A stretch of DNA of 64,000 nt from Escherichia coli (GCF_022846255.1 NZ_AP025682.1); one strand, 5' to 3'. Counted from the stretch's first letter, positions 13,836 through 64,000 are shown. Notes: a model not told the origin generated them from the letters alone. Program-made: numbers and translations.

Positions 13836-13995
13836 GGGTTATTCCTTATCTATCTAATAACGTTGAGTTTTCTGGAACCTGTCCCATTGAACTCTCACCG
13901 GAAAGCTCAATAAGACAGGTTCTACGTTTAGTTGCCGCGCTTTTATATGCGCTTGATTTACAACATCTTCTGGATAATTTTTACCAGAAAAATCA

Positions 13996-14760
13996 CTAAT
14001 TCTTTCGTTGCTCCAGACGACGCAGAGAACGCTCACGGCGGCTCTCTTCACGGCTTCTGTCGAGCAAAATTTCTTCGATAAAGGCCAGATGGCGATGCGA
14101 TGCTTCGCGCGCTTCTTCCGGCTTACCGGCCATAATCGCTTCAAATATACGGGTGCGGTGACTACTCACCAGCGGCAGCATCTCGCGACGCGAATAGAGC
14201 AATTCGAAGTTCTGGCGGACATTCTGGGCCAACATCGGCTCCATACACCTTAGCAGATGAAGCAGAACCACATTGTGGGCCGCTTCGGTGACGGCAATCT
14301 GATACTGGAGTACGGCGTTTGATTCCGCGTCCAGATCGCCAGACTGCTGCGCCAGCTCTATAGCGTGGTGGAGTTCACGGATGCGTTCCTTGTCTTCATC
14401 GGTACTACGCAGCGCGGCGTAATAAGCGGCGATACCTTCCAGGGCGTGTCGTGTTTCGAGCAAGTCATACTGTGATTCAGGATGGTCGGAGAGCAGCTCC
14501 ACCAGCGGATCGCTGAAGCTTTGCCATAGGCTGCTCTGGACAAAAGTGCCGCCACCCTGGCGACGAAGCAACAAGCCCTTCGCTTCGAGACGTTGAATCG
14601 CCTCACGCAATGAGGGACGGGAGACGTCAAACTGTTTTGCCAGTTCGCGTTCCGGTGGGAGTTTTTCGCCCGGGCGGAGAGTGCCTTCGAGGATCAAAAA
14701 CTCCAGTTGCTGCTCAATCACATCGGAGAGTTTTGGTTGGCGGATTTTGCTGTAGGCCAT
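13996..14760 (-). CDS. pdhR: GntR-family pyruvate-responsive repressor PdhR (254 aa)
   Basis: [29 protein letters not shown]... with N-terminal HTH; track ORF extended by 11 codons. Confidence 0.95.
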
Positions 14761-14791
14761 GAGTTCCTGTCTTAAGCCACTTGCCGAAGTC

Positions 14792-14808
14792 AATTGGTCT
14801 TACCAATT
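14792..14808. promoter_or_regulatory. PdhR operator (AATTGGT-N3-ACCAATT) in the pdhR promoter
   Basis: Perfect dyad aattggtcttaccaatt seen ~30 bp upstream of pdhR start. Confidence 0.8.
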
Positions 14809-15213
14809 TCATGTCTGTGACGCTAAAGTAACAAAGTATTCACCTTATGTCCATACATGTTTTGATTGAAATCATGAAACTGTGCACATTTTAACAACTT
14901 GACATATATAACGTTTCAAAGTTGTAACTATGCACAAATGTAGACTTTACGTAGGAAAGGGATTTTTTAACGATTATTAAACTATAAAAATCCGAATTGA
15001 ACCGATTCACTTACCAATTTTGTGATTTTTAATTCAATTAAAACGAATTTAAATTCATTCTGCATATTGAGAGGGGTTGAGGCTGAGCTTTACAAACGGT
15101 TTCTTTTTAAGCAACTCATCTTCAACCATGCATAAAGCGGGTGCATTCGCTGTCGCATACCATTATTCTTGATCTGACGGAAGTCTTTTTGTAACAATTC
15201 AAACTTCTTTGAT

Positions 15214-25212: not shown

Positions 25213-25690
<478 letters not shown>

Positions 25691-25749
25691 TGTCTTAAAC
25701 CTATAAAAAAGGCGCAGAATCCTGCGCCTTTTACTTCAACTGTTAGCTT

Positions 25750-28455
25750 TTATTGCAGGCGGCCATGGCACTGCTTGTATTTTTTACCAGAACCACACGG
25801 GCAAGGATCGTTACGTCCTACTTTGCGTTCACCGGTTTGCGCCGCCAGTGCAGCTGCGGCTGCAGAGTCGTCATCCTGATGGCTAAGCTGCTGCATTTGC
25901 GCTAAACGCTCGGCTTCCATACGACGCTGTTGTTCCAGCTCCTCAACCTCTTCAGGCATACGTACCTGAACTTTGCTCAGCGTGCTGATAACTTCATATT
26001 TTAACGACTCCAGCATCGCTGCAAACATGGAGAACGATTCACGTTTGTATTCCTGCTTCGGATCTTTCTGTGCATAGCCACGCAGGTGGATACCCTGACG
26101 CAGATAGTCCATCGCAGCCAGGTGCTCTTTCCACAGAGAGTCAAGCGTTTGCAGCATGACGCCTTTCTCGAAGTGACGCATCATCTCAGCACCAACCACT
26201 TCTTCTTTACGCTGATACACTTCGATGGACTGTGCCAGAATGCGCTCACGCAGCGTCTCTTCATGCAGTTCTGGTTCTTTATCCAGCCACTCGGCAATTG
26301 GCAAATCGAGGTCGAAATCGTTCTTCAGACGTTCCTGCAGCCCCGGAATATCCCACATTTCTTCCAGCGACTGTGGCGGAATGTAGGCATCAATGGTGGC
26401 TTTGAACACATCTTCACGAATGCTGTTGATGGTTTCGCTCACATCGCTGACATCCAGCAGTTCGTTACGCTGGGAGTAAATGGCGCGACGCTGATCGTTA
26501 GCCACGTCATCATATTCCAGCAGTTGCTTACGAATGTCGAAGTTACGGCTTTCAACTTTACGCTGGGCGTTGGCAATCGCTTTGGTCACCCACGGGTGCT
26601 CAATGGCTTCGCCTGGCTTCATACCCAGTTTACGCATCATGCCGGATACTCGGTCGGAAGCAAAAATACGCATCAGCGCATCTTCCATCGACAGGTAGAA
26701 ACGGGAAGAACCAGCATCCCCCTGACGACCAGAACGACCGCGCAGCTGGTTATCGATACGACGGGATTCGTGACGTTCAGTACCGATGATATGCAGGCCA
26801 CCTGCTGCCAGTACCGCATCGTGACGTACCTGCCAGTCGGCTTTAATTTTTTCAATTTGCTCTGCAGTCGGATTTTCCAGCGCGGCAACTTCTGCCTGCC
26901 AGCTACCACCGAGCACAATATCGGTACCACGACCCGCCATGTTGGTCGCGATAGTCACCGCAGCCGGGTAACCTGCCTGAGCAACAATCGCCGCTTCGTT
27001 GGCATGGAATTTGGCGTTCAGGACGTTGTGCTTAATACCGGCTTTGGTCAGTTCATTTGACACCAGCTCCGATTTTTCGATGGAGATTGTACCCACCAGC
27101 ACCGGCTGGCCTTTCGCAGTACGTTCTTTGATATCTTCAATGATCGCCTGAATTTTTTCCGCTTCAGTCATGTAGACCAGGTCCGGCAAATCTTTACGAA
27201 TCATTGGACGGTTGGTCGGAACAACGACAGTATCCAGCTTATAGATGGAGCTGAATTCGAAAGCTTCGGTATCAGCAGTACCAGTCATCCCCGCCAGTTT
27301 TTCATACAGACGGAAGTAGTTCTGGAAGGTGATCGAAGCCAGCGTTTGGTTTTCGTTCTGGATCTGCACACCTTCTTTCGCTTCCACAGCCTGGTGCAGA
27401 CCATCGGACCAGCGACGGCCCTGCATGGTACGACCGGTGTGTTCGTCAACGATGATAACTTCACCATCTTTAACGATGTAGTCGACGTCGCGGGTAAACA
27501 GCGCATGAGCGCGCAGCGCCGCCGTTACGTGGTGCATCAGCATGATGTTGGCCGGAGAGTACAGAGACTCACCTTCATCCATGATGCCTTCTTTAACCAG
27601 CAGTTCTTCAATCAGAACCAGACCACGTTCGGTCAGGTTCACCTGGCGAGATTTTTCATCCACCGAGAAGTGGCCTTCGCCCTGGAAGGTTTCGGAGTCT
27701 TCTTTTTCCTGACGGATCAGGTGCGGAATAATTTTATTCACGCGTTTATACATTTCCGAGCTGTCTTCTGCTGGGCCGGAAATGATCAGCGGTGTACGCG
27801 CTTCATCGATGAGGATGGAGTCCACTTCGTCCACCAGCGCATAGTGCAGTTTACGTTGTACACGTTCTTCAGGGCTGAATGCCATGTTGTCGCGCAGGTA
27901 GTCAAAGCCGTATTCGTTGTTCGTACCGTAAGTGATGTCAGCAGCGTAGGCTTCACGCTTTGCCGGTGCTGGCATGCCCGGTAGGTTGATACCGACAGTC
28001 AGGCCAAGGAATTCAAACAGCGGACGGTTGTTTTCGGCGTCACGTTGCGCCAGGTAGTCGTTGACGGTAACTACGTGTACGCCTTTACCGGTTAGTGCGT
28101 TCAGGTAAGCAGGCAGCGTTGCGGTCAGGGTTTTACCTTCACCGGTACGCATTTCGGCGATGCAGCGTTCGTTAAGAACCATACCGCCGAGTAACTGAAC
28201 GTCGAAGTGACGCATGCCAAAGACGCGCTTACTTGCCTCACGCACCACGGCGAAAGCTTCCGGGATCAGATTTTCCAGCACTTCGCCTTTTTCCAGACGC
28301 GCACGAAACTCTGCGGTTTTCCCTTTCAGTTCTTCGTCGGAGAGTTTTTCCATCTCCGGTTCCATGGCATTGATGATGTTGACCACTTTGCGCATCCGGC
28401 GCAGGGTGCGATCGTTACGACTACCGAAAACTTTAGTTAATAATTTGATTAGCAT
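25750..28455 (-). CDS. secA: preprotein translocase ATPase SecA (901 aa)
   Basis: Full-length match including C-terminal zinc-binding [14 protein letters not shown]. Confidence 0.97.
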
Positions 28456-30277: not shown

Positions 30278-31429
30278 TTAATCAGCTTGCTTACGCAGGA
30301 ATGCTGGGATATCCAGATAATCCGGCTCTTTCGCAGTTTGCGGCGCATTGTCATTCACGACTTTAGCAACCGGCTTCTGCTCCTGGGTCAGCGGAGCCAT
30401 ACCGTGCTGCTGGTAGCGATCCATCACTGGCTGCTGAACCTGCTTATTGGTCACCAGAGTGATTTCAGGACGTTTGTCCATGCCGATACCTGTCGCAACA
30501 ACAGTTACGCGCAGTTCGTCATTCATATCCGGGTCAAGAGAAGTACCGATAACCACGGTCGCGTTGTCGGAAGCAAATGCACGGATGGTGTTACCTACCG
30601 TTTCGAACTCATCCAGACGCAGGTCGAAGCCCGCTGTGATGTTTACCAGTACGCCGCGTGCGCCAGACAGGTCGATATCTTCCAGCAGCGGAGAAGAGAT
30701 AGCCATTTCAGCAGCTTCTTCCGCACGGTCTTCACCGCTCGCCACGCCAGAACCCATCATTGCGTAGCCCATTTCAGACATTACGGTGCGTACGTCTGCA
30801 AAGTCCACGTTCATCAAACCCGGACGAGTAATCAGTTCGGCGATACCTTGCACAGCGCCTTTCAGTACATCGTTCGCTGCGCCAAACGCATCCAGCAGGG
30901 AGATACCACGGCCCAGAACTTTCAGCAGTTTGTCGTTCGGGATAGTGATCAGAGAGTCCACATGCTTGGACAGTTCAGTGATCCCCTGCTCCGCGAATGC
31001 CATACGCTTCTTGCCTTCAAAGTTGAAGGGCTTAGTGACGACAGCAACGGTCAGGATACCCAAATCTTTTGCCACTTCAGCGACGACTGGTGCTGCACCT
31101 GTACCGGTACCACCACCCATACCCGCAGCAATAAAGACCATGTCTGCACCTTCCAGCGCCGCACGCAGTGCATCGCGATCCTCATCAGCCGCATTGCGGC
31201 CAACTTCTGGATTAGCGCCAGCTCCCAGTCCTTTGGTGATACCGCTACCGATTTGAATCGTCTGTCCAACCGCTGTTTTACGCAGCGCTTGTGCATCGGT
31301 ATTTACCGCGAAGAATTCAACACCTTCAATGCGCTCGCGCACCATGTGTTCAACAGCATTACCGCCGCCGCCGCCGACGCCGATGACTTTAATCACCGCG
31401 TCATTGGTAAGTTCCATTGGTTCAAACAT
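30278..31429 (-). CDS. ftsZ: cell division GTPase FtsZ (383 aa)
   Basis: Tubulin signature GGGTGTG; full-length match. Confidence 0.98.
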
Positions 31430-31489
31430 AGTTTCTCTCCGATTTGTGCCTGTCGCCTGAGGCCGTAATCATCGTCGGCCTCATAAAAA

Positions 31490-32752
31490 TTAAAACTCTT
31501 TTCGCAGCCAACTATTGAGTCGCTTGATCCACGAGCCAACTGATGCTGTAACACGTTTTTCTACTTCAGCTTCACCGTTAAGATGTGACTCTTTCCCGTA
31601 ATGAAGCAATCCCACCGCCGTCGAATAATACGGCTCCTGAGCATAATCCGTTAAACCGGTAATGTTCAGCGGCGCGCCGATACGCACCTGCGTATGAAAC
31701 ACGCGCTGAGCACAGGCTGCAAGACCTTCGATCTGCGCTGCGCCACCGGTTAATACAATGCCTGCCGCCAGGTGATGTTTAACCCCTTGTTGGCGAAGCT
31801 TTTCCTGCAACTGCAATATCTCTTCGTTGACCAGATTGAGCAGCTCGGTATAGCGCGGCTCGATCACCTCTGCCAGGGTCTGACGTTGCAGACTCCGCGG
31901 CGGACGACCGCCTACGCTCGGCACTTCCACGCTCTCATCTTTTCCAACGATGGAGCCCAGCGCACAACCGTGGCGAACTTTAATCGCTTCGGCGTCACTT
32001 GGCGGTGTGCCAAAGGCGTAAGCGATATCACTGGTCACGACATTGCCAGCATAAGGAATTACCTTCGTGTGGCGCAATGCCCCACCGGTATAAACGGCGA
32101 TATCCATTGTACCACCACCGATATCGACAACGCAGACACCCAGTTCACGTTCATCTTCCGTCAATACCGAATAACTTGATGCCAGTCCGGCAAATATCAG
32201 TTGGTCAACTTTCAGCCCACAACGTTCAACCGCTTTGACGATGTTTTTCGCCATATCGTTGTGACATGTGATCAGGTGCACTTTTGCCTGCATCCGCACG
32301 CCCGAAAGTCCTACCGGATTCTTGATCCCTTCCTGATAGTCAATCGCATACTCTTGCGGGATCACATGCAGCACACGATGCTCATCGCGCACACGCACCG
32401 ATTTCGCGGTATGGACGACGTTTTCCACATCTTCTTGCGTCACTTCTTCTTCAGAAATAGGCACCATACCAATTTCATTCTGGCAGCTGATGTGCTTACC
32501 AGAAAGCGCCAGATATACCGAAGAGATCTGACAATCTGCCATCAATTCTGCCTGGTCAATGGCGCGTTGTACGCACTTGACCACGGATTCGAGGTCGTTC
32601 ACCCCGCCTTTATCCATACCACGCGACGGGCAGCTGCCCACGCCAATGATATTGACCATACCGTCGGGCAGAACTTCCCCTACTAAAGCGGCAACCTTCG
32701 CGGTACCAATCTCCAGTCCTACTACCAGTTTTCTGTCCGTCGCCTTGATCAT
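31490..32752 (-). CDS. ftsA: cell division protein FtsA (420 aa)
   Basis: Actin-like ATPase, full-length match. Confidence 0.97.
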
Positions 32753-49379: not shown

Positions 49380-51104
49380 TCAGGTTCTCTCCGTTTTGCT
49401 TAACCACATTTCATCCATTCCGCCCCCGCGAATCTGCATCGGGTAGACGTGCTCACTGCCATCGACGGTAACATCAACAAACACCAGGCGATTATTGCGC
49501 ACCTGTTCCAGCGCCTCGCTAAGTTTGCTTTCCAGTTCTTGCGGATGAGAGATCTGGATCCCGACGTGACCATAGGCTTCCGCCAGACGGACGAAATCGG
49601 GTAGTGACTGCATATAAGATTGTGAATGACGGCCGGAATAGATCATGTCCTGCCACTGCTTCACCATCCCCAGATAGCGGTTATTGAGATTCACCACCAG
49701 TACCGGCAACTCATATTGCAACGCGGTAGACAGTTCCTGAATGTTCATCTGAATACTGCCGTCGCCAGTGACGCAAACCACGGTTTCTTCTGGCAACGCC
49801 ATTTTGACGCCCAGTGCCGCAGGCAAACCAAAACCCATCGTGCCGAGGCCGCCAGAATTGATCCAGCGACGCGGTTTGTCGAATGGATAATAAAGCGCAG
49901 CAAACATCTGGTGCTGCCCGACATCGGACGTCACGTAAGCGTCTCCCTTCGTCAACCGCCAAAGAGTCTCGATCACCGCCTGCGGTTTAATCTTTTCACT
50001 GTAAGAGTCATATTTCAGGCACTGACGAGCGCGCCACTGTTCAATCTGCTGCCACCAGTCGCGGATCTCATCCAGCGGTTGATGGACGGATTCTTGCGAC
50101 AGGAGTTCAAGCATTTGTTCGAGGACCTGGCGAGCATCCCCCACAATCGGGATATCAGCAGTCACGGTTTTAGAAATGGAAGTAGGATCAATATCGATAT
50201 GCAGAACCGTGGCATTTGGGCAGTACTTCGCCAGATTGTTCGTCGTTCGGTCATCAAAACGTACCCCGACGGCGAAAATCACATCCGCGTTATGCATCGT
50301 CATATTGGCTTCGTAGGTACCGTGCATTCCCAACATGCCCAGTGCCTGACGATGCGTTGCCGGAAACGCCCCCAGCCCCATTAATGAGGAAACAACGGGC
50401 AGATTCAACGCCTCCACCGTTTCTTTTAGCTGCTGATGACAGCCCGCCGTGATTGCCCCACCGCCTACATAGACAACCGGTTTTTTTGCCGCCACCAGCG
50501 TTTGCAGAGCGCGCTTAATTTGCCCTTTATGCCCGGAGGTCGTGGGATTGTAAGATCGCATACTGACCGACTCCGGCCAGACGTAGGGTAATTTGTTCGC
50601 CGGATTAAGAATATCTTTCGGTAAATCAACGACCACGGGCCCAGGGCGACCACTTGCCGCCAGCCAGAAAGCCTTTTTCAGCACCTGCGGAATGTCTTCC
50701 GTTTGCTTAACCAGAAAACTGTGTTTAACCACCGGGCGAGAAATCCCCACCATGTCGCACTCCTGAAAGGCATCGTAGCCTATCAACGAGGTCGCTACCT
50801 GCCCGGAAAGGACAACTAATGGAATGGAATCCATATAAGCGGTGGCAATGCCAGTAATCGCATTGGTCGCCCCTGGACCCGACGTTACCAGCACGACGCC
50901 GACTTCCCCGGTCGCGCGCGCCAGACCATCGGCCATATGCACCGCCGCCTGCTCATGACGAACTAAAACATGATCGATACCACCCACGGTATGCAATGCA
51001 TCGTAAATATCAAGGACCGCGCCTCCAGGATAACCGAATACTTGTTTAACGCCCTGATCGATAAGCGATCGGACGACCATCTCGGCTCCAGACAACATCT
51101 CCAT
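49380..51104 (-). CDS. ilvI: acetolactate synthase III large subunit (574 aa)
   Basis: ThDP-enzyme [31 protein letters not shown]...; track ORF extended by 30 codons. Confidence 0.95.
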
Positions 51105-51369
51105 GGCCTGCCTCACTGTTTGACGGAAAAAATGTGTAAAACACATTAACCGTCCGATCTTGCTTAAGCAATTGGCAGACAGAGACATAAACACGGGGTA
51201 ATAAGAATAAACAGGAGGAAAGGTGAAAAGAAACGATAAAATCCTCCATTACAGAGGATGAAATTGATAATAAATCGGCTGAATCCTACAACTTACAGCA
51301 ATTTCTCTATTTTTTTAATTAATCCTAAAATAGAGAGCACAAACATTCAGAATAAAATTCTACATTCAA

Positions 51370-51419
51370 TAAAAAATGCAGAATAAACCAGACATTGATG
51401 TCTGACCTATTCTGCATTC
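51370..51419 (-). terminator. leuO intrinsic terminator (nested hairpin plus U-tract)
   Basis: 11-bp arms aatgcagaata / tattctgcatt with inner palindrome cagacat/atgtctg, followed on the minus strand by TTTTT. Confidence 0.6.
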
Positions 51420-51421
51420 AG

Positions 51422-52366
51422 TTAGCGTTTGCAAATTGAGACTAATTGCTCTTCCATCCACTGATGGCCTTTATCACGCCCGGCAGCTTCATGCCAGGAG
51501 AGATAACAGGTTCTGCTGTTTTGTTTTAACGGCAGCGGTAATACCTGTAACTCTAAGGATTCAGCGAATTCTTCAGCCAACCAACGCGGCGCAATAGCGA
51601 CCAGATGCGTTTGCGACACCACGCTAAGTACGCTCATCATTGCCATGCCCTGATACGCGATACTGGCTTGCTTATCTACCGTGTCATACCAGGTTTGACT
51701 AAATGATGCGAAACGATCGAGCGAAACCGCAGCGTGTTGTTCGTTATAAACATCATGCTTCAGTAACGGGCCTTTAATTGTTGGATGATTTTTGCTGGCT
51801 ACCAACACCATTTCATCTTTAAATAATGGCACACTGGTAAATTCAGGGCGATGGAAGTCTTCATAACTAATCACAAACTCCGTTTCCTGATAACGCAGCT
51901 GATGTTCAGTGTTCTGATTTAATGAAGACTTGAACATAACATGTATATTTGGCGCAATCTGCTCAATGTGATTATAAATCTGCGAGGTCAGAATGCTGTC
52001 TAACGGGCTGCAAACACAAAGATGAAATACACGTTCACTGCTCGCGGGTTCAAAACCTGAACCAGGCAATTCATTTTGTACTAGTTGCAATGCCTGACGA
52101 ACTGAGCCAAAAAGTTGAAATGCGCGAGCAGTCGGTTGAATACCACGGCCATAACGAACAAAAAGCTCGTCATTAAACATCACCTTCAGGCGTGCAACAG
52201 CGTTACTGACCGCAGGTTGCGACATTCCCAGAGCATGAGCGGCACGGGTGATGTTTTGCTCCTGCATCACGGCATCGAAAACGGTTAATAAGTTGAGATC
52301 GACCATGCGTAGCTGTGGCTTGCTTAACTCCGCCGTCTCTGGATGATCTGTTTGTACCTCTGGCAT
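51422..52366 (-). CDS. leuO: LysR-family global regulator LeuO (314 aa)
   Basis: [30 protein letters not shown]...; track ORF extended by 28 codons. Confidence 0.95.
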
Positions 52367-53023
52367 ACTTAACTCCACTGTCACACTTAACTCCCTTTCC
52401 CTTATTGGAATGCAGAGAAATAATCCTCGAGAATATGATTTATCATGCATATAAAATAAGAAAAAGCAAAATGAGTAAAATTAGGAAAACATAAAGATAC
52501 AGGTTCTGATAAAAACAGAATCCACTGCCGAGCAAAGAGTTATTTACTACAGCATAATAATCCATAATGTTTTTGTTGCGAAAACAATCTAATCATAACT
52601 ACCACGAATACTCAATCATCCACAAAATGGATTAAATGTGCTTTTTAATAATTAATTTATATGTTTAATGCATTAATTCTTAACATTAATTGATCAATAA
52701 TATTCAGCAAATGAATATCAAAAAATTCGCAAAACATATAATTCAATACAAATCATCAAGATAGGTTTTGCAACGCGTGCATTTTATCCCCCTTTCCCTC
52801 GTTGATTAGATGCAAAAAATTATTCTGAAATATGTCAACCGATGAAAAGCATCGGCGGTTAAGCAGAAATTAATATCGCTTGTTTTAACCACCGCAGCAC
52901 AATTAGCTAATTTTACGGATGCCGAACTCACAATGGCGTGACGTTTTTATTGCTTCAGGGTTGACATCCGTTTTTGTATCCAGTAACTCTAAAAGCATAT
53001 CGCATTCATCTGGAGCTGATTTA

Positions 53024-53110
53024 ATGACTCACATCGTTCGCTTTATCGGTCTACTACTACTAAACGCATCTTCTTTGCGCGGTAGACGAGTGAGCGGCAT
53101 CCAGCATTAA
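53024..53110 (+). CDS. leuL: leu operon leader peptide (28 aa)
   Basis: [28 protein letters not shown] with four consecutive Leu codons; followed by attenuator hairpin. Confidence 0.9.
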
Positions 53111-53130
53111 GCCAGCACGCAGTCAAACAA

Positions 53131-53158
53131 AAACCCGCGCCATTGCGCGGGTTTTTTT
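53131..53158 (+). terminator. leu attenuator terminator
   Basis: aaacccgcgccattgcgcgggttttttt: GC stem followed by T7 run, 20 nt after leuL stop. Confidence 0.9.
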
Positions 53159-53201
53159 ATGCCCGAAGCGAGGCGCTCAAAAAGAGACAAGGACCCAAAC
53201 C

Positions 53202-55864
<2,663 letters not shown>

Positions 55865-55866
55865 TC

Positions 55867-57883
<2,017 letters not shown>

Positions 57884-57917
57884 TTTGTACACCGTCCGGC
57901 ACTCAATCGCCAAAAAG

Positions 57918-58143
57918 AAAAAAGCCAGCAGATAATCACTGCTGGCGTGGCGATTAACACCAATACTCAGTCACACATGATGTCCGCAAATCAGTAGTCA
58001 GAATGACTCCCCTCCCACTGCATCAGTTCTTCAAGCATGGTTAATCGTTGTGGGACGCTTAACCAACGCAACCAGCACAACTTCGCTATCGCGGTAAAAT
58101 AGTGCTGATAAAACTGACGCATGGGGCACCTCCTTGCTTCATC
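57918..58143 (-). ncRNA. sgrS: dual-function small RNA SgrS (glucose-phosphate stress)
   Basis: Minus strand reads gatgaagcaaggaggtgccccatgcgtcag... at the 5' end; conserved seed catcatgtgtgactgagtattggtg; 3' hairpin cagcagtgattatctgctgg plus U-tract; divergent from sgrR. Confidence 0.85.
57991..58122 (-). CDS. sgrT: SgrT small protein (43 aa) encoded within SgrS
   Basis: MRQFYQHYFTAIAKLCWLRWLSVPQRLTMLEELMQWEGSHSDY; the 83-aa track ORF is an upstream extension beyond the sRNA 5' end. Confidence 0.8.
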   Translation of the reverse strand: MRQFYQHYFTAIAKLCWLRWLSVPQRLTMLEELMQWEGSHSDY

Positions 58144-58210
58144 GTTAGGAATTATTGACTTAATATAGGGAAAATAAAATTGCTGTCTTTTGCGCAGGAG
58201 TTCCCCTTTT

Positions 58211-59866
58211 ATGCCATCTGCTCGTCTGCAACAACAGTTCATCCGCCTGTGGCAATGCTGCGAGGGTAAATCTCAGGAGACCACGCTCAACGAACTGGCA
58301 GCGTTACTGAGTTGCTCGCGTCGTCATATGCGCACCCTGCTCAACACCATGCAGGATCGCGGCTGGCTGACGTGGGAAGCGGAAGTCGGGCGCGGTAAAC
58401 GTTCACGCCTGACATTCCTCTATACCGGGCTGGCGCTTCAGCAACAGCGGGCGGAAGACCTGCTGGAGCAGGATCGTATCGACCAACTAGTGCAGTTGGT
58501 TGGCGACAAAGCGACTGTGCGGCAAATGCTGGTTTCTCATCTGGGCCGCAGCTTCCGCCAGGGGCGGCACATCCTGCGCGTGCTCTACTATCGTCCGTTG
58601 CGTAATCTGCTACCTGGCAGCGCATTGCGCCGTTCTGAAACCCATATCGCCCGGCAAATCTTCAGTTCGCTAACGCGCATAAATGAGGAAAATGGGGAAC
58701 TGGAAGCAGACATCGCACACCACTGGCAGCAAATATCACCGCTTCACTGGCGTTTCTTTTTGCGTCCAGGAGTCCATTTTCACCATGGTCGTGAACTGGA
58801 AATGGACGATGTGATCGCCTCTTTAAAACGAATCAATACGCTTCCGCTCTATTCGCATATTGCTAACATTGTGTCGCCGACGCCCTGGACGCTGGATATC
58901 CATCTCACGCAACCGGACCGCTGGTTGCCGTTACTGCTGGGGCAAGTTCCGGCAATGATCCTGCCGCGCGAATGGGAAACCCTCAGTAACTTTGCCAGCC
59001 ATCCCATCGGCACCGGTCCGTATGCGGTGATCCGCAACAGCACCAATCAACTGAAAATTCAGGCATTCGATGACTTCTTCGGTTACCGGGCATTAATCGA
59101 CGAAGTTAACGTCTGGGTTCTGCCGGAAATTGCCGACGAGCCAGCCGGAGGGCTGATGCTAAAAGGTCCACAGGGCGAGGAAAAAGAGATTGAAAGCCGC
59201 CTGGAGGAAGGTTGCTACTATTTACTGTTCGACAGCCGCACCCATCGAGGGGCGAATCAGCAAGTCAGAGACTGGGTAAGCTATGTGCTTTCTCCGACGA
59301 ATCTGGTCTATTTCGCTGAGGAACAGTACCAGCAACTGTGGTTCCCGGCTTATGGACTGCTCCCCCGTTGGCACCATGCCCGCACCATAAAGAGCGAAAA
59401 ACCGGCTGGTCTGGAAAGCCTCACCCTGACCTTTTATCAGGATCACAGCGAGCATCGGGTGATTGCCGGGATCATGCAGCAGATTCTGGCAAGTCACCAG
59501 GTCACGCTGGAAATCAAAGAGATCAGCTACGATCAGTGGCATGAAGGAGAGATCGAGAGCGATATCTGGCTTAACAGCGCCAACTTTACGCTGCCGCTGG
59601 ATTTTTCGCTGTTCGCGCACTTGTGCGAGGTGCCGCTGCTCCAACACTGTATTCCGATCGACTGGCAAGCCGACGCCGCCCGCTGGCGCAATGGCGAAAT
59701 GAACCTGGCGAACTGGTGCCAGCAACTGGTCGCCAGCAAAGCAATGGTGCCACTTATCCACCACTGGCTGATCATTCAGGGGCAACGTAGTATGCGCGGC
59801 CTGCGCATGAACACCCTCGGCTGGTTCGATTTTAAATCAGCGTGGTTTGCACCACCGGATCCATGA
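58211..59866 (+). CDS. sgrR: transcriptional regulator SgrR (551 aa)
   Basis: [33 protein letters not shown]... with N-terminal HTH and solute-binding-like domain. Confidence 0.95.
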
Positions 59867-59894
59867 TTGCTGGTTGATAACAAAATCACTACAC

Positions 59895-60029
59895 TAACGC
59901 CGTTCTCAACGGGGTGCCACGCAGCCGCGTGCGCTGAGAAAATACCCGTCGAACCTGATCCGGATAACGCCGGCGAAGGGATTTGAGGCTCCTTCTCAAG
60001 TCCTTTGCCACTCTTTTGTGAGGTGCAAA
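59895..60029 (+). promoter_or_regulatory. TPP riboswitch (thi-box) in the thiBPQ leader (SroA region)
   Basis: ggggtgccac...gctgagaaaatacccgtcgaacctgatccggataacgccggcgaaggga matches the THI element, immediately upstream of thiB. Confidence 0.85.
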
Positions 60030-61013
60030 GTGTTAAAAAAATGTCTTCCCCTGCTGTTGCTGTGCACAGCGCCTGTTTTCGCTAAACCTGTTCTGACTGT
60101 TTATACCTACGATTCCTTTGCCGCTGACTGGGGACCTGGTCCGGTAGTCAAAAAAGCCTTTGAAGCAGACTGTAATTGCGAACTGAAACTGGTGGCGCTG
60201 GAAGATGGCGTTTCGCTTCTCAACCGTCTGCGGATGGAAGGCAAAAACAGTAAAGCCGATGTGGTGCTGGGGCTGGATAACAATCTGTTAGACGCCGCCA
60301 GCAAAACAGGGCTGTTTGCTAAAAGCGGTGTGGCAGCGGAAGCCGTTAACGTTCCTGGCGGCTGGAATAATGACACTTTCGTACCGTATGATTACGGCTA
60401 TTTCGCCTTCGTCTATGACAAGAACAAACTGAAAAATCCGCCGCAAAGCCTGAAAGAACTGGTTGAGAGCGATCAAAACTGGCGGGTGATTTATGAAGAT
60501 CCACGTACCAGTACACCGGGGCTGGGTCTGTTGCTATGGATGCAAAAAGTCTATGGCGATAACGCCCCGCAAGCCTGGCAGAAACTGGCGAAGAAAACTG
60601 TCACGGTCACCAAAGGCTGGAGCGAAGCCTACGGCCTGTTTTTAAAAGGCGAAAGCGATCTGGTACTGAGTTACACCACCTCTCCGGCTTATCACATTCT
60701 CGAAGAGAAGAAAGATAACTACGCCGCCACAAACTTTATCGAAGGTCACTATCTGCAGGTGGAAGTTGCCGCCCGCACCGCTGCCAGCAAGCAGCCAGAG
60801 CTGGCGCAAAAATTCCTCCAGTTTATGGTTTCTCCGGCTTTTCAGAATGCGATCCCAACCGGCAACTGGATGTATCCGGTAGCAAACGTCACTCTGCCTG
60901 CAGGATTTGAACAATTGACCAAACCAGCCACCACACTAGAGTTCACACCCGCCGAAGTGGCGGCACAACGTCAGGCATGGATTAGCGAATGGCAACGCGC
61001 CGTCAGCCGTTAA
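60030..61013 (+). CDS. thiB: thiamine ABC transporter periplasmic binding protein (327 aa)
   Basis: GTG start giving (M)LKKCLPLLLLCTAPVFA signal peptide. Confidence 0.93.
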   Translation: MLKKCLPLLLLCTAPVFAKPVLTVYTYDSFAADWGPGPVVKKAFEADCNCELKLVALEDGVSLLNRLRMEGKNSKADVVLGLDNNLLDAASKTGLFAKSGVAAEAVNVPGGWNNDTFVPYDYGYFAFVYDKNKLKNPPQSLKELVESDQNWRVIYEDPRTSTPGLGLLLWMQKVYGDNAPQAWQKLAKKTVTVTKGWSEAYGLFLKGESDLVLSYTTSPAYHILEEKKDNYAATNFIEGHYLQVEVAARTAASKQPELAQKFLQFMVSPAFQNAIPTGNWMYPVANVTLPAGFEQLTKPATTLEFTPAEVAAQRQAWISEWQRAVSR

Positions 61014-62599
61014 TTCCCGGCTGGTTAATTCCAGGCGTAAGCGCCGCCACGCTGGTGGTAGCGGTTGCACTGGCGGCGTTTCTCGCCCTGTGGTGGAACG
61101 CGCCGCAGGGTGACTGGGTGTCAGTCTGGCAGGACAGCTACCTGTGGCATGTGGTGCGCTTCTCCTTCTGGCAGGCGTTTCTCTCGGCGCTGCTCTCTGT
61201 CGTACCCGCAATATTCCTCGCCCGCGCCCTCTATCGCAGGCGCTTTCCTGGGCGACAGATGCTGTTGCGTCTGTGCGCAATGACCTTGATCCTCCCGGTG
61301 CTGGTTGCCGTTTTCGGCATTCTTAGCGTCTATGGTCGCCAGGGCTGGCTGGCCTCGCTCTGGCAATCACTTGGTCTGGAGTGGACCTTTTCGCCCTACG
61401 GCCTGCAAGGCATTTTGCTGGCCCATGTGTTTTTTAATCTGCCGATGGCTAGCCGTTTATTACTCCAGGCACTGGAAAACATTCCCGGCGAACAACGTCA
61501 GCTTGCCGCCCAGCTTGGGATGCGCGGCTGTCACTTCTTCCGCTTCGTCGAATGGCCGTGGTTACGGCGACAAATCCCGCCGGTTGCCGCACTAATCTTT
61601 ATGCTCTGTTTCGCCAGCTTCGCCACCGTGCTATCGCTGGGCGGCGGTCCGCAGGCGACCACTATCGAGCTGGCAATCTATCAGGCGCTGAGTTACGACT
61701 ACGATCCTGCCCGCGCGGCAATGCTGGCGCTGATCCAGATGGTGTGCTGCCTCGGGCTGGTGCTGTTGAGTCAGCGATTGAGTAAGGCCATTGCGCCTGG
61801 TACCACACTGCTGCAAGGCTGGCGCGACCCGGACGATCGTCTGCATAGTCGCATTTGCGACACGGCGTTAATTGTGCTGGCGCTGCTGCTGTTGCTGCCA
61901 CCGTTACTGGCGGTGATCGTCGATGGGGTAAATCGCCAGTTGCCGGAAGTGCTGGCACAACCGGTGCTGTGGCAGGCGCTGTGGACCTCGTTGCGTATTG
62001 CGCTGGCGGCAGGCGTATTGTGCGTAGTGCTGACCATGATGCTGCTATGGAGCAGTCGCGAACTTCGGGCGCGGCAGAAAATGCTGGCGGGTCAGGCGCT
62101 GGAGATGAGCGGCATGTTGATCCTCGCCATGCCGGGGATTGTGCTGGCTACGGGCTTCTTTTTACTGCTCAACAACACTATCGGCCTGCCACAATCTGCT
62201 GACGGCATTGTGATTTTCACCAATGCGTTAATGGCAATCCCTTATGCGCTGAAAGTGCTGGAAAACCCGATGCGCGATATCACCGCCCGCTACAGCATGT
62301 TGTGTCAGTCGCTGGGCATTGAAGGCTGGTCACGCTTAAAAGTGGTGGAGCTGCGCGCCCTGAAACGTCCACTGGCGCAGGCGCTGGCCTTTGCTTGTGT
62401 GCTGTCGATTGGTGATTTTGGCGTGGTGGCATTGTTCGGTAACGATGATTTCCGTACCCTGCCGTTTTATCTCTACCAGCAAATTGGCTCCTATCGCAGC
62501 CAGGACGGCGCGGTCACCGCGTTAATTCTGCTGCTGCTCTGTTTTCTGCTGTTTACCGTGATTGAAAATATACCGGGGCGAAATGTTAAAACTGACTGA
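60989..62599 (+). CDS. thiP: thiamine ABC transporter permease (536 aa)
   Basis: Two-module permease ORF overlapping the thiB 3' end. Confidence 0.95.
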
Positions 62600-63281
62600 T
62601 ATCACCTGGCTTTACCACCATTTGCCGATGCGTTTTAGCTTAACGGTGGAACGCGGCGAGCAGGTGGCGATCCTCGGGCCAAGCGGCGCGGGTAAAAGTA
62701 CCCTGCTGAATTTGATCGCCGGTTTTCTGACGCCAGCCAGCGGTTCGCTGACTATCGACGGCGTTGATCACACCACGACGCCGCCGTCACTCCGTCCGGT
62801 GTCGATGCTGTTTCAGGAGAACAACCTGTTCAGCCACCTGACGGTCGCGCAGAACATCGGGCTGGGGCTAAATCCGGGGTTGAAACTAAATGCGGCGCAG
62901 CAGAAGAAAATGCACGCGATTGCCCACCAGATGGGGATTGATAATTTAATGGCGCGGTTACCTGGCGAGCTTTCCGGCGGTCAGCGACAGCGCGTGGCGT
63001 TGGCGCGTTGTCTGGTACGCGAACAGCCCATTTTATTGCTCGATGAACCGTTTTCCGCGCTCGATCCGGCGCTACGTCAGGAGATGCTGACGCTAGTGAG
63101 CACGAGCTGCCAACAGCAAAAAATGACGCTCTTGATGGTGTCGCACAGTGTGGAAGATGCGGCGCGGATCGCCACGCGCTCGGTGGTGGTCGCCGACGGG
63201 CGTATCGCCTGGCAGGGTAAGACCGATGAGTTGTTGAGCGGTAAGGCGAGTGCTTCGGCGCTGTTGGGAATTAAAGGTTAA
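62583..63281 (+). CDS. thiQ: thiamine ABC transporter ATP-binding protein (232 aa)
   Basis: Walker [13 protein letters not shown] signature LSGGQRQR; [21 protein letters not shown]... Confidence 0.95.
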
Positions 63282-63288
63282 TATGCAC

Positions 63289-63385
<97 letters not shown>

Positions 63386-63394
63386 GGCTATCCC

Positions 63395-64000
63395 CTAAAC
63401 CCCAACCACTTTACGCAAAATATCGATATACACCGGCATCAACGGGTGGCGAATTAACACCACCAGCGCCACCACGCCGATGGCAGAAATCAACGGCGTC
63501 AGCCACAACAAACGACCGCGGGACAAATAATGACTCAAACGGTCAGTCGCTTTACCGCTGCGCCATAACCGCCAGCACAGCCAGCCTCCAACCCACAAAA
63601 ACACCGCTGTTGCCAGCAGCAACCATTTAAACTCACCGCTCTGCATCCCGGCAGGAATATCGATCGCCGCACCCGCCAGAATCCCCGGCAGGAAGTAAAA
63701 CGGTGGCCACAGCAAGCAGCCGATAATATTCGGCGTAATAAATTTTGCCACCGGGAGATCCAGCATTCCCGCCACCATTGGCACCAGCGGACGCGTCGGG
63801 CCGACAAAACGACCGACCAGAATGGTGAACATGCTGTGCTGATGCAGCGCATGTTCGGTTTTATCGAGTAATGCTTTGTTCTTCTTCAGAAATGACCAGC
63901 GATGCAACGGCTTTTTAAAACGCCAGCCCAGCCAGAAGGAGATCCAGTCGCCCAGCAGGCAGCCAATAATCCCCGCCAGCCAGGCGTACCAGAAACTTAA
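63395..64000 (-). CDS. yabI: DedA-family inner membrane protein YabI, C-terminal ~200 codons (N-terminus beyond window end)
   Basis: Frame stays open to the window edge; translation ...LSFWYAWLAGIIGCLLGDWISFWLGWRFKKPLHRWSFLKKNK... matches YabI. Confidence 0.85.
   Translation of the reverse strand, partial: LSFWYAWLAGIIGCLLGDWISFWLGWRFKKPLHRWSFLKKNKALLDKTEHALHQHSMFTILVGRFVGPTRPLVPMVAGMLDLPVAKFITPNIIGCLLWPPFYFLPGILAGAAIDIPAGMQSGEFKWLLLATAVFLWVGGWLCWRLWRSGKATDRLSHYLSRGRLLWLTPLISAIGVVALVVLIRHPLMPVYIDILRKVVGV

Follow-up and report, generated by a model that had tools for sequence, protein, structure and literature searches.

The window analysed here, a stretch of 64,000 nucleotides of Escherichia coli DNA (GCF_022846255.1, NZ_AP025682.1), harbors a copy of sgrS, the gene for the dual-function small RNA SgrS (Table 1). 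The 227 nt gene matches the Rfam family RF00534 over the full length of the model (positions 1-232; 226.6 bits; gathering score: 37; E-value: 2.8e-64), contains an intact sgrT reading frame and retains the 26-nt base-pairing (seed) block of K-12 unchanged, and the three elements are thus as recognizable as the initial annotation of this DNA had claimed. The gene is divergent from sgrR and lies between the TPP riboswitch (59900-59999) and the thiBPQ genes on that side and leuD on the other, the plus-strand leuABCD genes being preceded by the leu leader (53010-53158). This gene order is that of the annotated genomes. A promoter-like site is present on the minus strand of the sgrR-sgrS intergenic region, where an SgrR site is presumed from the literature (PMC2760817). 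An 83 amino acid open reading frame on the minus strand (57991-58242) was rejected as a gene, as it is merely the sgrT frame extended upstream through the promoter. The sgrS terminator was also considered as a possible end of leuABCD transcription; no terminator-like site was found on the plus strand between 57700 and 58400, the hairpin on this strand being followed by GUGGCGAUU, without a U-run.

Table 1. Features of the sgrS locus, with positions counted from the first nucleotide of the window.
Feature	Position	Strand	Evidence or remark
leuD, convergent with sgrS	57278..57883	+	ORF; tblastn 99% identity to K-12 LeuD
Spacer, leuD stop to sgrS tail	57884..57911		setA site in K-12 and other genera
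Allele-specific 3′ tract (SgrT tail, seed surroundings, terminator loop and tail, spacer to leuD)	57884..58012	-	27/97 differences vs 4% background
U-tail, U6-C-U5	57912..57923	-	K-12 has 8 consecutive T
sgrS gene	57917..58143	-	RF00534; at least 95% identity in 2158 complete E. coli genomes, 80-90% in 3241 others
Terminator hairpin, 8-bp stem GCCAGCAG/CTGCTGGC, 7-nt loop	57924..57946	-	Predicted fold; GC-rich
Small hairpin before terminator (UGGUG-UUAAU-CGCCA), part of Hfq-binding module	57948..57962	-	Predicted fold
Base-pairing (seed) block CATCATGTGTGACTGAGTATTGGTGT, SgrS nt 162-187	57957..57982	-	Identical to K-12
sgrT CDS, 43 codons and TGA	57991..58122	-	ORF/translation (start ATG 58122-58120; stop TGA 57993-57991); Pfam PF15894; RefSeq 'glucose uptake inhibitor SgrT' in matching genomes
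SgrT codon 12, ATA (Ile); common allele ACA (Thr)	58087..58089	-	Sole mismatch to best of 5426 complete genomes
sgrT Shine-Dalgarno AAGGAGGU	58128..58135	-	K-12 has AAGGGGGU, locked in GGGG/CCCC hairpin
sgrR-sgrS divergent intergenic region: sgrS promoter and presumed SgrR site	58144..58210		Between sgrS +1 (58143) and sgrR ATG (58211)
sgrR, divergent transcriptional activator	58211..59866	+	ORF; annotation of matching genomes; Pfam SgrR_N in identical contexts

The downstream context of the gene is not that of K-12. There, setA (1179 nt) comes after the sgrS terminator and precedes the convergent leuD, whereas in the window the end of sgrS lies ~34 nt from the leuD stop codon, with leuD directly next to it, and no SetA-coding sequence was found within 4 kb downstream of sgrS. 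Apart from position 12 of the SgrT core, the window copy has every computable property of SgrS and SgrT; it lacks the K-12 sgrS-setA operon arrangement, and hence also the sgrS-setA read-through transcript.

When aligned with its K-12 counterpart, the window sgrS shares 88.6-89.5% identity. Three differences are observed in the first 131 nt of SgrS, while 27 of the 97 positions from sgrT codon 37 (58012) to the terminator end differ, against a flanking background of 4.05% (377/9300; binomial P about 1e-15). The claim that the window is not K-12 and carries a natural SgrT/SgrS variant is thus borne out by the alignment, which shows no exact identity. The seed block is untouched inside this divergent stretch, and an unbroken run of at least its 26 nt arises in only 0.1% of mismatch permutations (p = 0.001). 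With the E. coli ptsG leader, both alleles form an identical core duplex in RNAduplex predictions; the leader was taken from E. coli genomes, the ptsG gene of the window's own genome lying outside the window, and is at least 99% identical in 5379/5424 genomes and 100% identical in the listed genomes of O157:H7, a serotype with the window-type allele. Extended pairings beyond the core seed (-32.1 vs -35.3 kcal/mol between the alleles) were discounted, as they rest on long interior loops.

A two-hairpin architecture is predicted for the 3′ end of both alleles, with the small hairpin closed by the seed end. This hairpin, which belongs to the Hfq-binding module defined in the K-12 literature (PMC4509938), has the 3′ arm CGCCA in the window vs CACC in K-12, and the 10-nt spacer before the terminator stem likewise differs. 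The terminator stem itself had been said to differ from that of K-12 (GCCAGCAG/CTGCTGGT), but 15 of its 16 bases are the same, the exception converting the G-U closing pair of K-12 into G-C; the differences lie instead in this pair, the spacer before the stem, the 7-nt loop (TGATTAT in the window vs ATTATAC in K-12) and the U-tail. Among 34 SgrS homologs, the stem is identical in 31, one carries a compensatory double change and two K-12-type sequences have the G-U closing pair, while the loop varies freely. To judge from the alignment, conservation in the replaced stretch is confined to the seed and the terminator stem. The U-tail of the window has an uninterrupted U-run of 6, shorter than the at least seven stated for K-12 small RNAs (PMC5558911): work on K-12 SgrS has concluded that Hfq-binding small RNAs need at least seven terminal U's, with terminator T-runs of more than seven (PMC5558911, PMC4509938). 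Six T followed by C are, however, found in 27/34 homologs, and eight T only in the K-12 type. Termination may run past the C and on to the second U-run, or else six U's may suffice, in which case the rule would be K-12-specific. As the norm among SgrS homologs, the T6-C tail is a naturally occurring and inexpensive means of probing how long a poly(U) stretch Hfq requires.

At the 5′ end, SgrS nt 13 is A in the window vs G in K-12. In the predicted folds, the K-12 5′ end forms a GGGG...CCCC hairpin over the ribosome-binding site, and the window 5′ end does not, the substitution removing the anti-Shine-Dalgarno hairpin and leaving the sequence AAGGAGGU. In K-12, this hairpin reportedly restrains translation of sgrT, and its presence is described as the minority state (PMC2760817); the same change in the Shine-Dalgarno sequence has been noted in EDL933 (PMC5331693). 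Over the 70 nt from -40 to +30, the window version occurs exactly in 3495/5399 genomes and the K-12 version in 1421/5399. As its Shine-Dalgarno sequence is predicted to be unsequestered, lacking the K-12 hairpin, the window allele should yield more SgrT per transcript than that of K-12.

The SgrT peptides of the window (MRQFYQHYFTAIAKLCWLRWLSVPQRLTMLEELMQWEGSHSDY) and K-12 (MRQFYQHYFTATAKLCWLRWLSVPQRLTMLEGLMQWDDRNSES) are both 43 amino acids long. The window peptide matches Pfam PF15894 over residues 3-37 with 53 bits (cutoff: 27), while K-12 SgrT scores 49.6 bits, and no NCBIfam model matches either of them. Their C-termini differ at all of the last seven residues (EGSHSDY in the window vs DDRNSES in K-12, which ends ...LEGLMQWDDRNSES), in agreement with the initial annotation, in which the K-12 terminus had been given correctly. 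In neither allele does the Pfam match extend beyond residue 37, which places the changed tail outside the profile. Among the homologs, the tail that follows LMQW(E/D) ranges from one residue in C. sedlakii to ~25, shows no conservation and is hypervariable across genera. At residue 32, the window has Glu, the usual state, vs a Gly that is specific to the K-12 lineage.

All positions of the SgrT core, RQF(Y/W)..YF.AT...(S/C)WL....QRL..L.ELMQW, are kept in the window except Thr12, which is replaced by Ile. This is the only conserved-core change that is absent from both K-12 and the common form of the window allele, and with it (ACA to ATA) none of the 5426 complete genomes matches the window over the whole sRNA. 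Thr12 occurs in every other recognizable SgrT of a 27-sequence alignment, the other 26 being predicted sequences. The exact T12I protein is recorded on 52 contigs, always in a context without setA, and in the draft assemblies that carry it the flanks are 99.3-99.5% identical to the window. Ile12 was also found in some proteins of E. albertii and Escherichia sp., and for this reason may be tolerated. No SgrT mutagenesis was found in the literature searched, and residue 12 would be the first candidate in the window SgrT for a functional test.

On the basis of these features, the window copy probably represents a complete, working-looking SgrR-SgrS-SgrT glucose-phosphate stress module, in an allele native to Escherichia. 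By analogy to K-12 and Salmonella studies, sugar-phosphate stress would lead SgrR to activate sgrS, transcribed from 58143 on the minus strand. The 5′ half would be translated from the strong, unsequestered Shine-Dalgarno sequence into SgrT, which would block the PtsG transporter, while nt 162-187 in the 3′ half would base-pair with several mRNAs, among them ptsG and manXYZ, and Hfq would occupy the small hairpin, the terminator hairpin and the U-tail.

Orthologs of sgrS are present in 5399 of the 5426 complete E. coli genomes, 2158 of them at 95% identity or more to the window copy and 3241 at 80-90%, with none between. The gene setA was found in 3241 complete genomes, absence being defined as none detected at 85% DNA identity or above. 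A query spanning the K-12 junction (3′ sgrS into setA) matched 3242 genomes and one spanning the window junction (3′ sgrS into leuD) matched 2157, which together account for all 5399 genomes with sgrS; no recombinants between the two 3′ forms were found among them, giving a split of ~60:40. The 3′ allele is strictly linked to setA, the window type always occurring without setA next to leuD and the K-12 type always joined to setA. Genomes of the window type include those of phylogroup B2 (UTI89, 536 and ATCC 25922), O157:H7 (phylogroup E) and IAI39 (phylogroup F), and those of the K-12 type include K-12 and BL21, the window allele being absent from K-12 and B strains (phylogroup A), with these phylogroup assignments resting on a few named strains. 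The window allele is one half of a species-wide dimorphism (~40% vs ~60% of E. coli) rather than the product of drift in one genome.

The allele corresponds to the CFT073/O157:H7 type, described as 88% identical to K-12 (Horler & Vanderpool 2009, Nucleic Acids Res 37:5465, PMC2760817), a value that fits the identity measured here. The best matches among complete genomes, at 99.6% identity (1 mismatch/227 nt), include the B2 strain 536 and O157:H7 TR01, while sgrS of ATCC 25922 shares 99.1% identity with the window, and SgrT of this type is the same except at residue 12. Typical O157:H7 strains have the sgrT start codon ATT, unlike the intact ATG of the window (PMC2760817, PMC5331693), and SgrS of the same allele class has been reported to be induced in EHEC (PMC13293527). 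With K-12, the window shares the locus between sgrR and leuD, the seed, nearly the whole terminator stem, the 3′ fold and the length of SgrT; it differs in the missing setA and anti-Shine-Dalgarno hairpin, the SgrT tail, Glu32, the closing pair and the U-tail. With the SgrS of Salmonella and Citrobacter, it shares the seed, the terminator stem, the SgrT core (RQF..YF.AT..SWL...QRL..L.ELMQW), the Glu after LMQW and, in most, the T6-C tail; these genera, however, keep setA downstream, their SgrT is 40-48 amino acids long with different tails, and an insertion of 12 nt separates the seed from the terminator in Salmonella and some Citrobacter. The variant reported in the initial annotation is thus real, but it is not rare, its junction being present in 2157/5399 E. 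coli genomes with sgrS, and it was published in 2009. The absence of setA, the nt 13 G-to-A change and T12I are not mentioned in that annotation.

A scan for the seed pattern, with one genome per species, retrieved 47 loci, 43 of them in enteric bacteria; its sampling of Escherichia is without the type genomes of E. fergusonii, E. marmotae and E. ruysiae, which the pattern did not retrieve. Outside Escherichia, 35 of the 37 enteric loci have setA after sgrS, the sequence of the other two ending too soon after sgrS to tell. The genera with setA at this position include Citrobacter, Salmonella, Klebsiella, Raoultella, Enterobacter, Pluralibacter, Siccibacter and Superficieibacter, and leuD follows setA wherever the sequence reaches that far. 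Because of its occurrence in these 35 loci, sgrS-setA-leuD appears to be the old enteric arrangement. Within Escherichia, setA is absent in E. albertii, E. whittamii, Escherichia sp. E1V33 and the lineage of 'E. coli' SCPM-O-B-8794, and where their sequence reaches leuD the junction is the same as in the window. The window-type spacer junction is found in E. whittamii, E1V33 and SCPM-O-B-8794, as well as in O157 and IAI39.

Over the 97-nt 3′ tract, identity of the window to these four other Escherichia lineages is 94.8-96.9%, compared to 72.2% for K-12. For sgrR the order is reversed, with 97.8% identity to K-12 vs 88-93% to the four lineages. The K-12 tract (~1.35 kb) begins at sgrT codon 37 and reaches into the last ~25 nt of leuD, its right edge being marked by the end of leuD, which reads ...FMN* in K-12 and ...FMR* in all other Escherichia. 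The sole other lineage with this tract is Escherichia sp. MOD1-EC7003, in which the 3′ part of sgrS is 100% and setA 98.9% identical to K-12. Its sgrR is only 92-94% identical to that of E. coli, and near-identity of the tract despite so distant an sgrR is a sign of its lateral movement. A gain of setA in the A/B1 sublineage has been independently inferred in a pangenome reconstruction (Gonzalez-Alba et al. 2019, PMC6896753). Since four other Escherichia lineages share the window allele and the junction without setA, K-12 is likely to be the outlier and the window allele the native one of Escherichia. The window SgrT had previously been taken as the diverged party, a polarity that these comparisons reverse.

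Taken together, we consider it probable that the window allele is native and that the K-12 type arose through a later replacement that restored setA. The gene would have been lost once in an ancestor of Escherichia and regained by A/B1-type E. coli through homologous replacement with donor DNA, with a ~1.35-kb segment replacing everything from sgrT codon 37 to the last leuD codons and bringing setA with it. This two-step history is the simplest, because other enteric genera have the sgrS-setA-leuD arrangement. A few substitutions and a 2-nt deletion separate the spacers next to leuD of different Escherichia species, a species-level divergence which favors vertical inheritance of one old deletion over a recent sweep.

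Somewhat more tentatively, we lean towards K-12 SgrS being a chimera, in which the 5′ two-thirds are native, while the last ~95 nt, comprising the SgrT tail, the seed flanks, the Hfq module and the 8-U tail, were brought in together with setA by a foreign segment of ~1.35 kb, thereby reversing an ancient deletion. The native six-U tail is at odds with the seven-U rule for Hfq. No donor of the K-12 setA tract was found by tblastn and blastn against 45 species loci, in which the best SetA match shares 89% amino acid identity over its full length (93.5% over a 186 amino acid partial match; 82% DNA identity), while a search of a large protein collection gave only near-identical E. coli entries among the 120 matches listed. 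Furthermore, K-12 setA shares 73-82% DNA identity with the sampled species outside Escherichia, about the same as sgrR (72-81%), and thus looks as a vertically inherited gene would, which counts against import. Both forms of the 10-nt post-seed spacer, TAATCGCCRC and AAAATCACCC, occur within Citrobacter; they may therefore reflect an old polymorphism or movement between genera instead of a single import.

The similar distances of setA and sgrR would also fit a history in which K-12 is ancestral and the window type derived, setA having been deleted, the 3′ end of sgrS having diverged fast and the allele having spread between Escherichia species by recombination. Such a history is consistent with sgrS-setA-leuD being the general enteric arrangement and with the distance of K-12 setA from Citrobacter and Salmonella being about that of sgrR and leuD, which vertical descent would produce, and the 95-100% identity of the 3′ tract between Escherichia species, compared to 88-93% for sgrR, could reflect recent exchange. 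High conservation of the tract is, however, expected from selection on the seed and the Hfq module, while the spacer between the terminator and leuD shows divergence roughly at the species level and not the near-identity that a recent sweep would leave. Moreover, a divergence of 28% between the alleles cannot follow a within-species deletion against a background of 4%, and setA is confined to A/B1-type strains and MOD1-EC7003, whose shared tract of 99-100% identity is a sign of transfer. We regard a derived window allele as unlikely.

Alternatively, the two 3′ forms could constitute an ancient balanced polymorphism older than Escherichia, in which neither was imported and the SetA efflux pump is of niche-dependent value. 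The presence of both spacer forms in Citrobacter points in this direction, and for each of the two E. coli alleles a Citrobacter allele can be found that is more similar (up to 95% identity over 64-79 nt) than its E. coli counterpart (72%); the clean ~60:40 split without recombinants among the 5399 genomes would also be in keeping with it. In Citrobacter, however, both forms carry setA, and as such the spacer form and setA do not make up one linked polymorphism. Four of the five sampled Escherichia lineages other than E. coli have only the form without setA, and the distribution in E. coli tracks the phylogroups instead of being scattered, all of which renders a balanced polymorphism improbable.

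With replacement of the K-12 tract as the preferred reading, the change in the SgrT tail is best seen as a passenger, since it was accompanied by an entire gene and ~90 nt of non-coding differences. [quoted passage not shown]

The allele itself is real, already known, common and ordinary. What is added here is the linkage between the 3′ allele and the absence of setA, the boundaries of the tract, the placement of K-12 as the probable outlier and the T6-C tail as the norm, which together explain the variant neatly without constituting a discovery. Mechanistic work on SgrS, SgrT, the terminator and read-through has almost all been done in K-12, in which the anti-Shine-Dalgarno hairpin, the SgrT tail, the closing pair of the terminator, the 8-U tail and setA are each a K-12-type-only or minority state, departing from the allele that is probably native. 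At this locus, setA is missing from around 40% of sequenced E. coli, the B2 and O157:H7 strains named above among them, and the glucose-phosphate stress response of these strains is therefore without one of its three known arms.

The 14-kb portion of the window surrounding sgrS (50000-64000) shares at most 99.4% identity with any of 5,426 complete Escherichia coli genomes, the top matches being B2 strains, for example UTI89, S88 and ATCC 11775, while draft genomes encoding an identical SgrT show 99.3-99.5% identity to the window over 6 kb. The exact lineage of the window is without a representative among the genomes compared. Three E. coli genomes constitute rare exceptions to the otherwise clean dimorphism, in which sgrS either abuts leuD, as in the window, or carries a different 3′ end joined to setA, as in K-12. 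HH97 (NZ_CP116409.1) combines a 3′ sgrS of the K-12 type with a setA reduced to a fragment, the window-type junction of NZ_LR778147.1 is present but divided between two places, and the match in EBJ001 (NZ_CP086336.1) covers just 58% of sgrS. In the phylogroup F strain IAI39 (L056), an insertion carrying the type III secretion system effector gene espY2 (14289-14858) separates sgrR from the TPP riboswitch, and a T-to-C substitution is found at SgrS nt 187, the final base of the conserved block (17001), whereas the window harbors neither the insertion nor the substitution.

The T-run located 3′ of the SgrS terminator (window 57912-57923) comprises six uninterrupted T residues followed by a C in 27/34 homologues (loci L003-L049), while an eight-T tail is restricted to the K-12 type among the homologues compared (n = 34). 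A run of at least seven U residues has been published as a requirement for Hfq binding, with K-12 SgrS as the source of this rule (PMC5558911). The shorter, interrupted tail fits this requirement poorly. The terminator stem is altered in a single homologue, that of Enterobacter chuandaensis (L027), where both arms carry compensatory changes (GCCAGCAA/TTGCTGGC). Additional RNA elements were identified in the window, including PssrA, which is named as a plasmid-encoded sRNA of Shigella but is chromosomal here.

Other RNA elements of the window; for the five below the TPP riboswitch, each Rfam score exceeds its own gathering score
Element	Position	Strand	Rfam match
leu operon leader	53010-53158	+	147.4 bits; as expected
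TPP riboswitch, upstream of thiB	59900-59999	+	66.1 bits; as expected
PssrA	31421-31510	-	above gathering score
tp2	13838-13951	+	above gathering score
STnc40	25705-25774	-	above gathering score
naRNA4	25225-25301	-	above gathering score
ES036	7775-7817	-	above gathering score

The mismatch profile of the window against K-12 first made visible a patch at the 3′ end of sgrR (59570-59830), with 18 mismatches per 100 nt. Here the window shares 88.8% identity with K-12 and 98.1% with IAI39, while K-12 is 87-88% identical to all other Escherichia lineages. By this comparison, it is a second patch in which K-12, rather than the window, is the outlier. Escherichia sp. MOD1-EC7003 (L038), a separate species-level lineage with an sgrR 92-94% identical to that of E. 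coli, carries a 3′ sgrS and a setA which are 100% and 98.9% identical, respectively, to those of K-12. The occurrence of this K-12-like sequence in a separate lineage implies that the sgrS-setA tract was exchanged laterally, in either direction. As judged from the patch in sgrR, the K-12-type sgrR-sgrS-setA locus looks mosaic.
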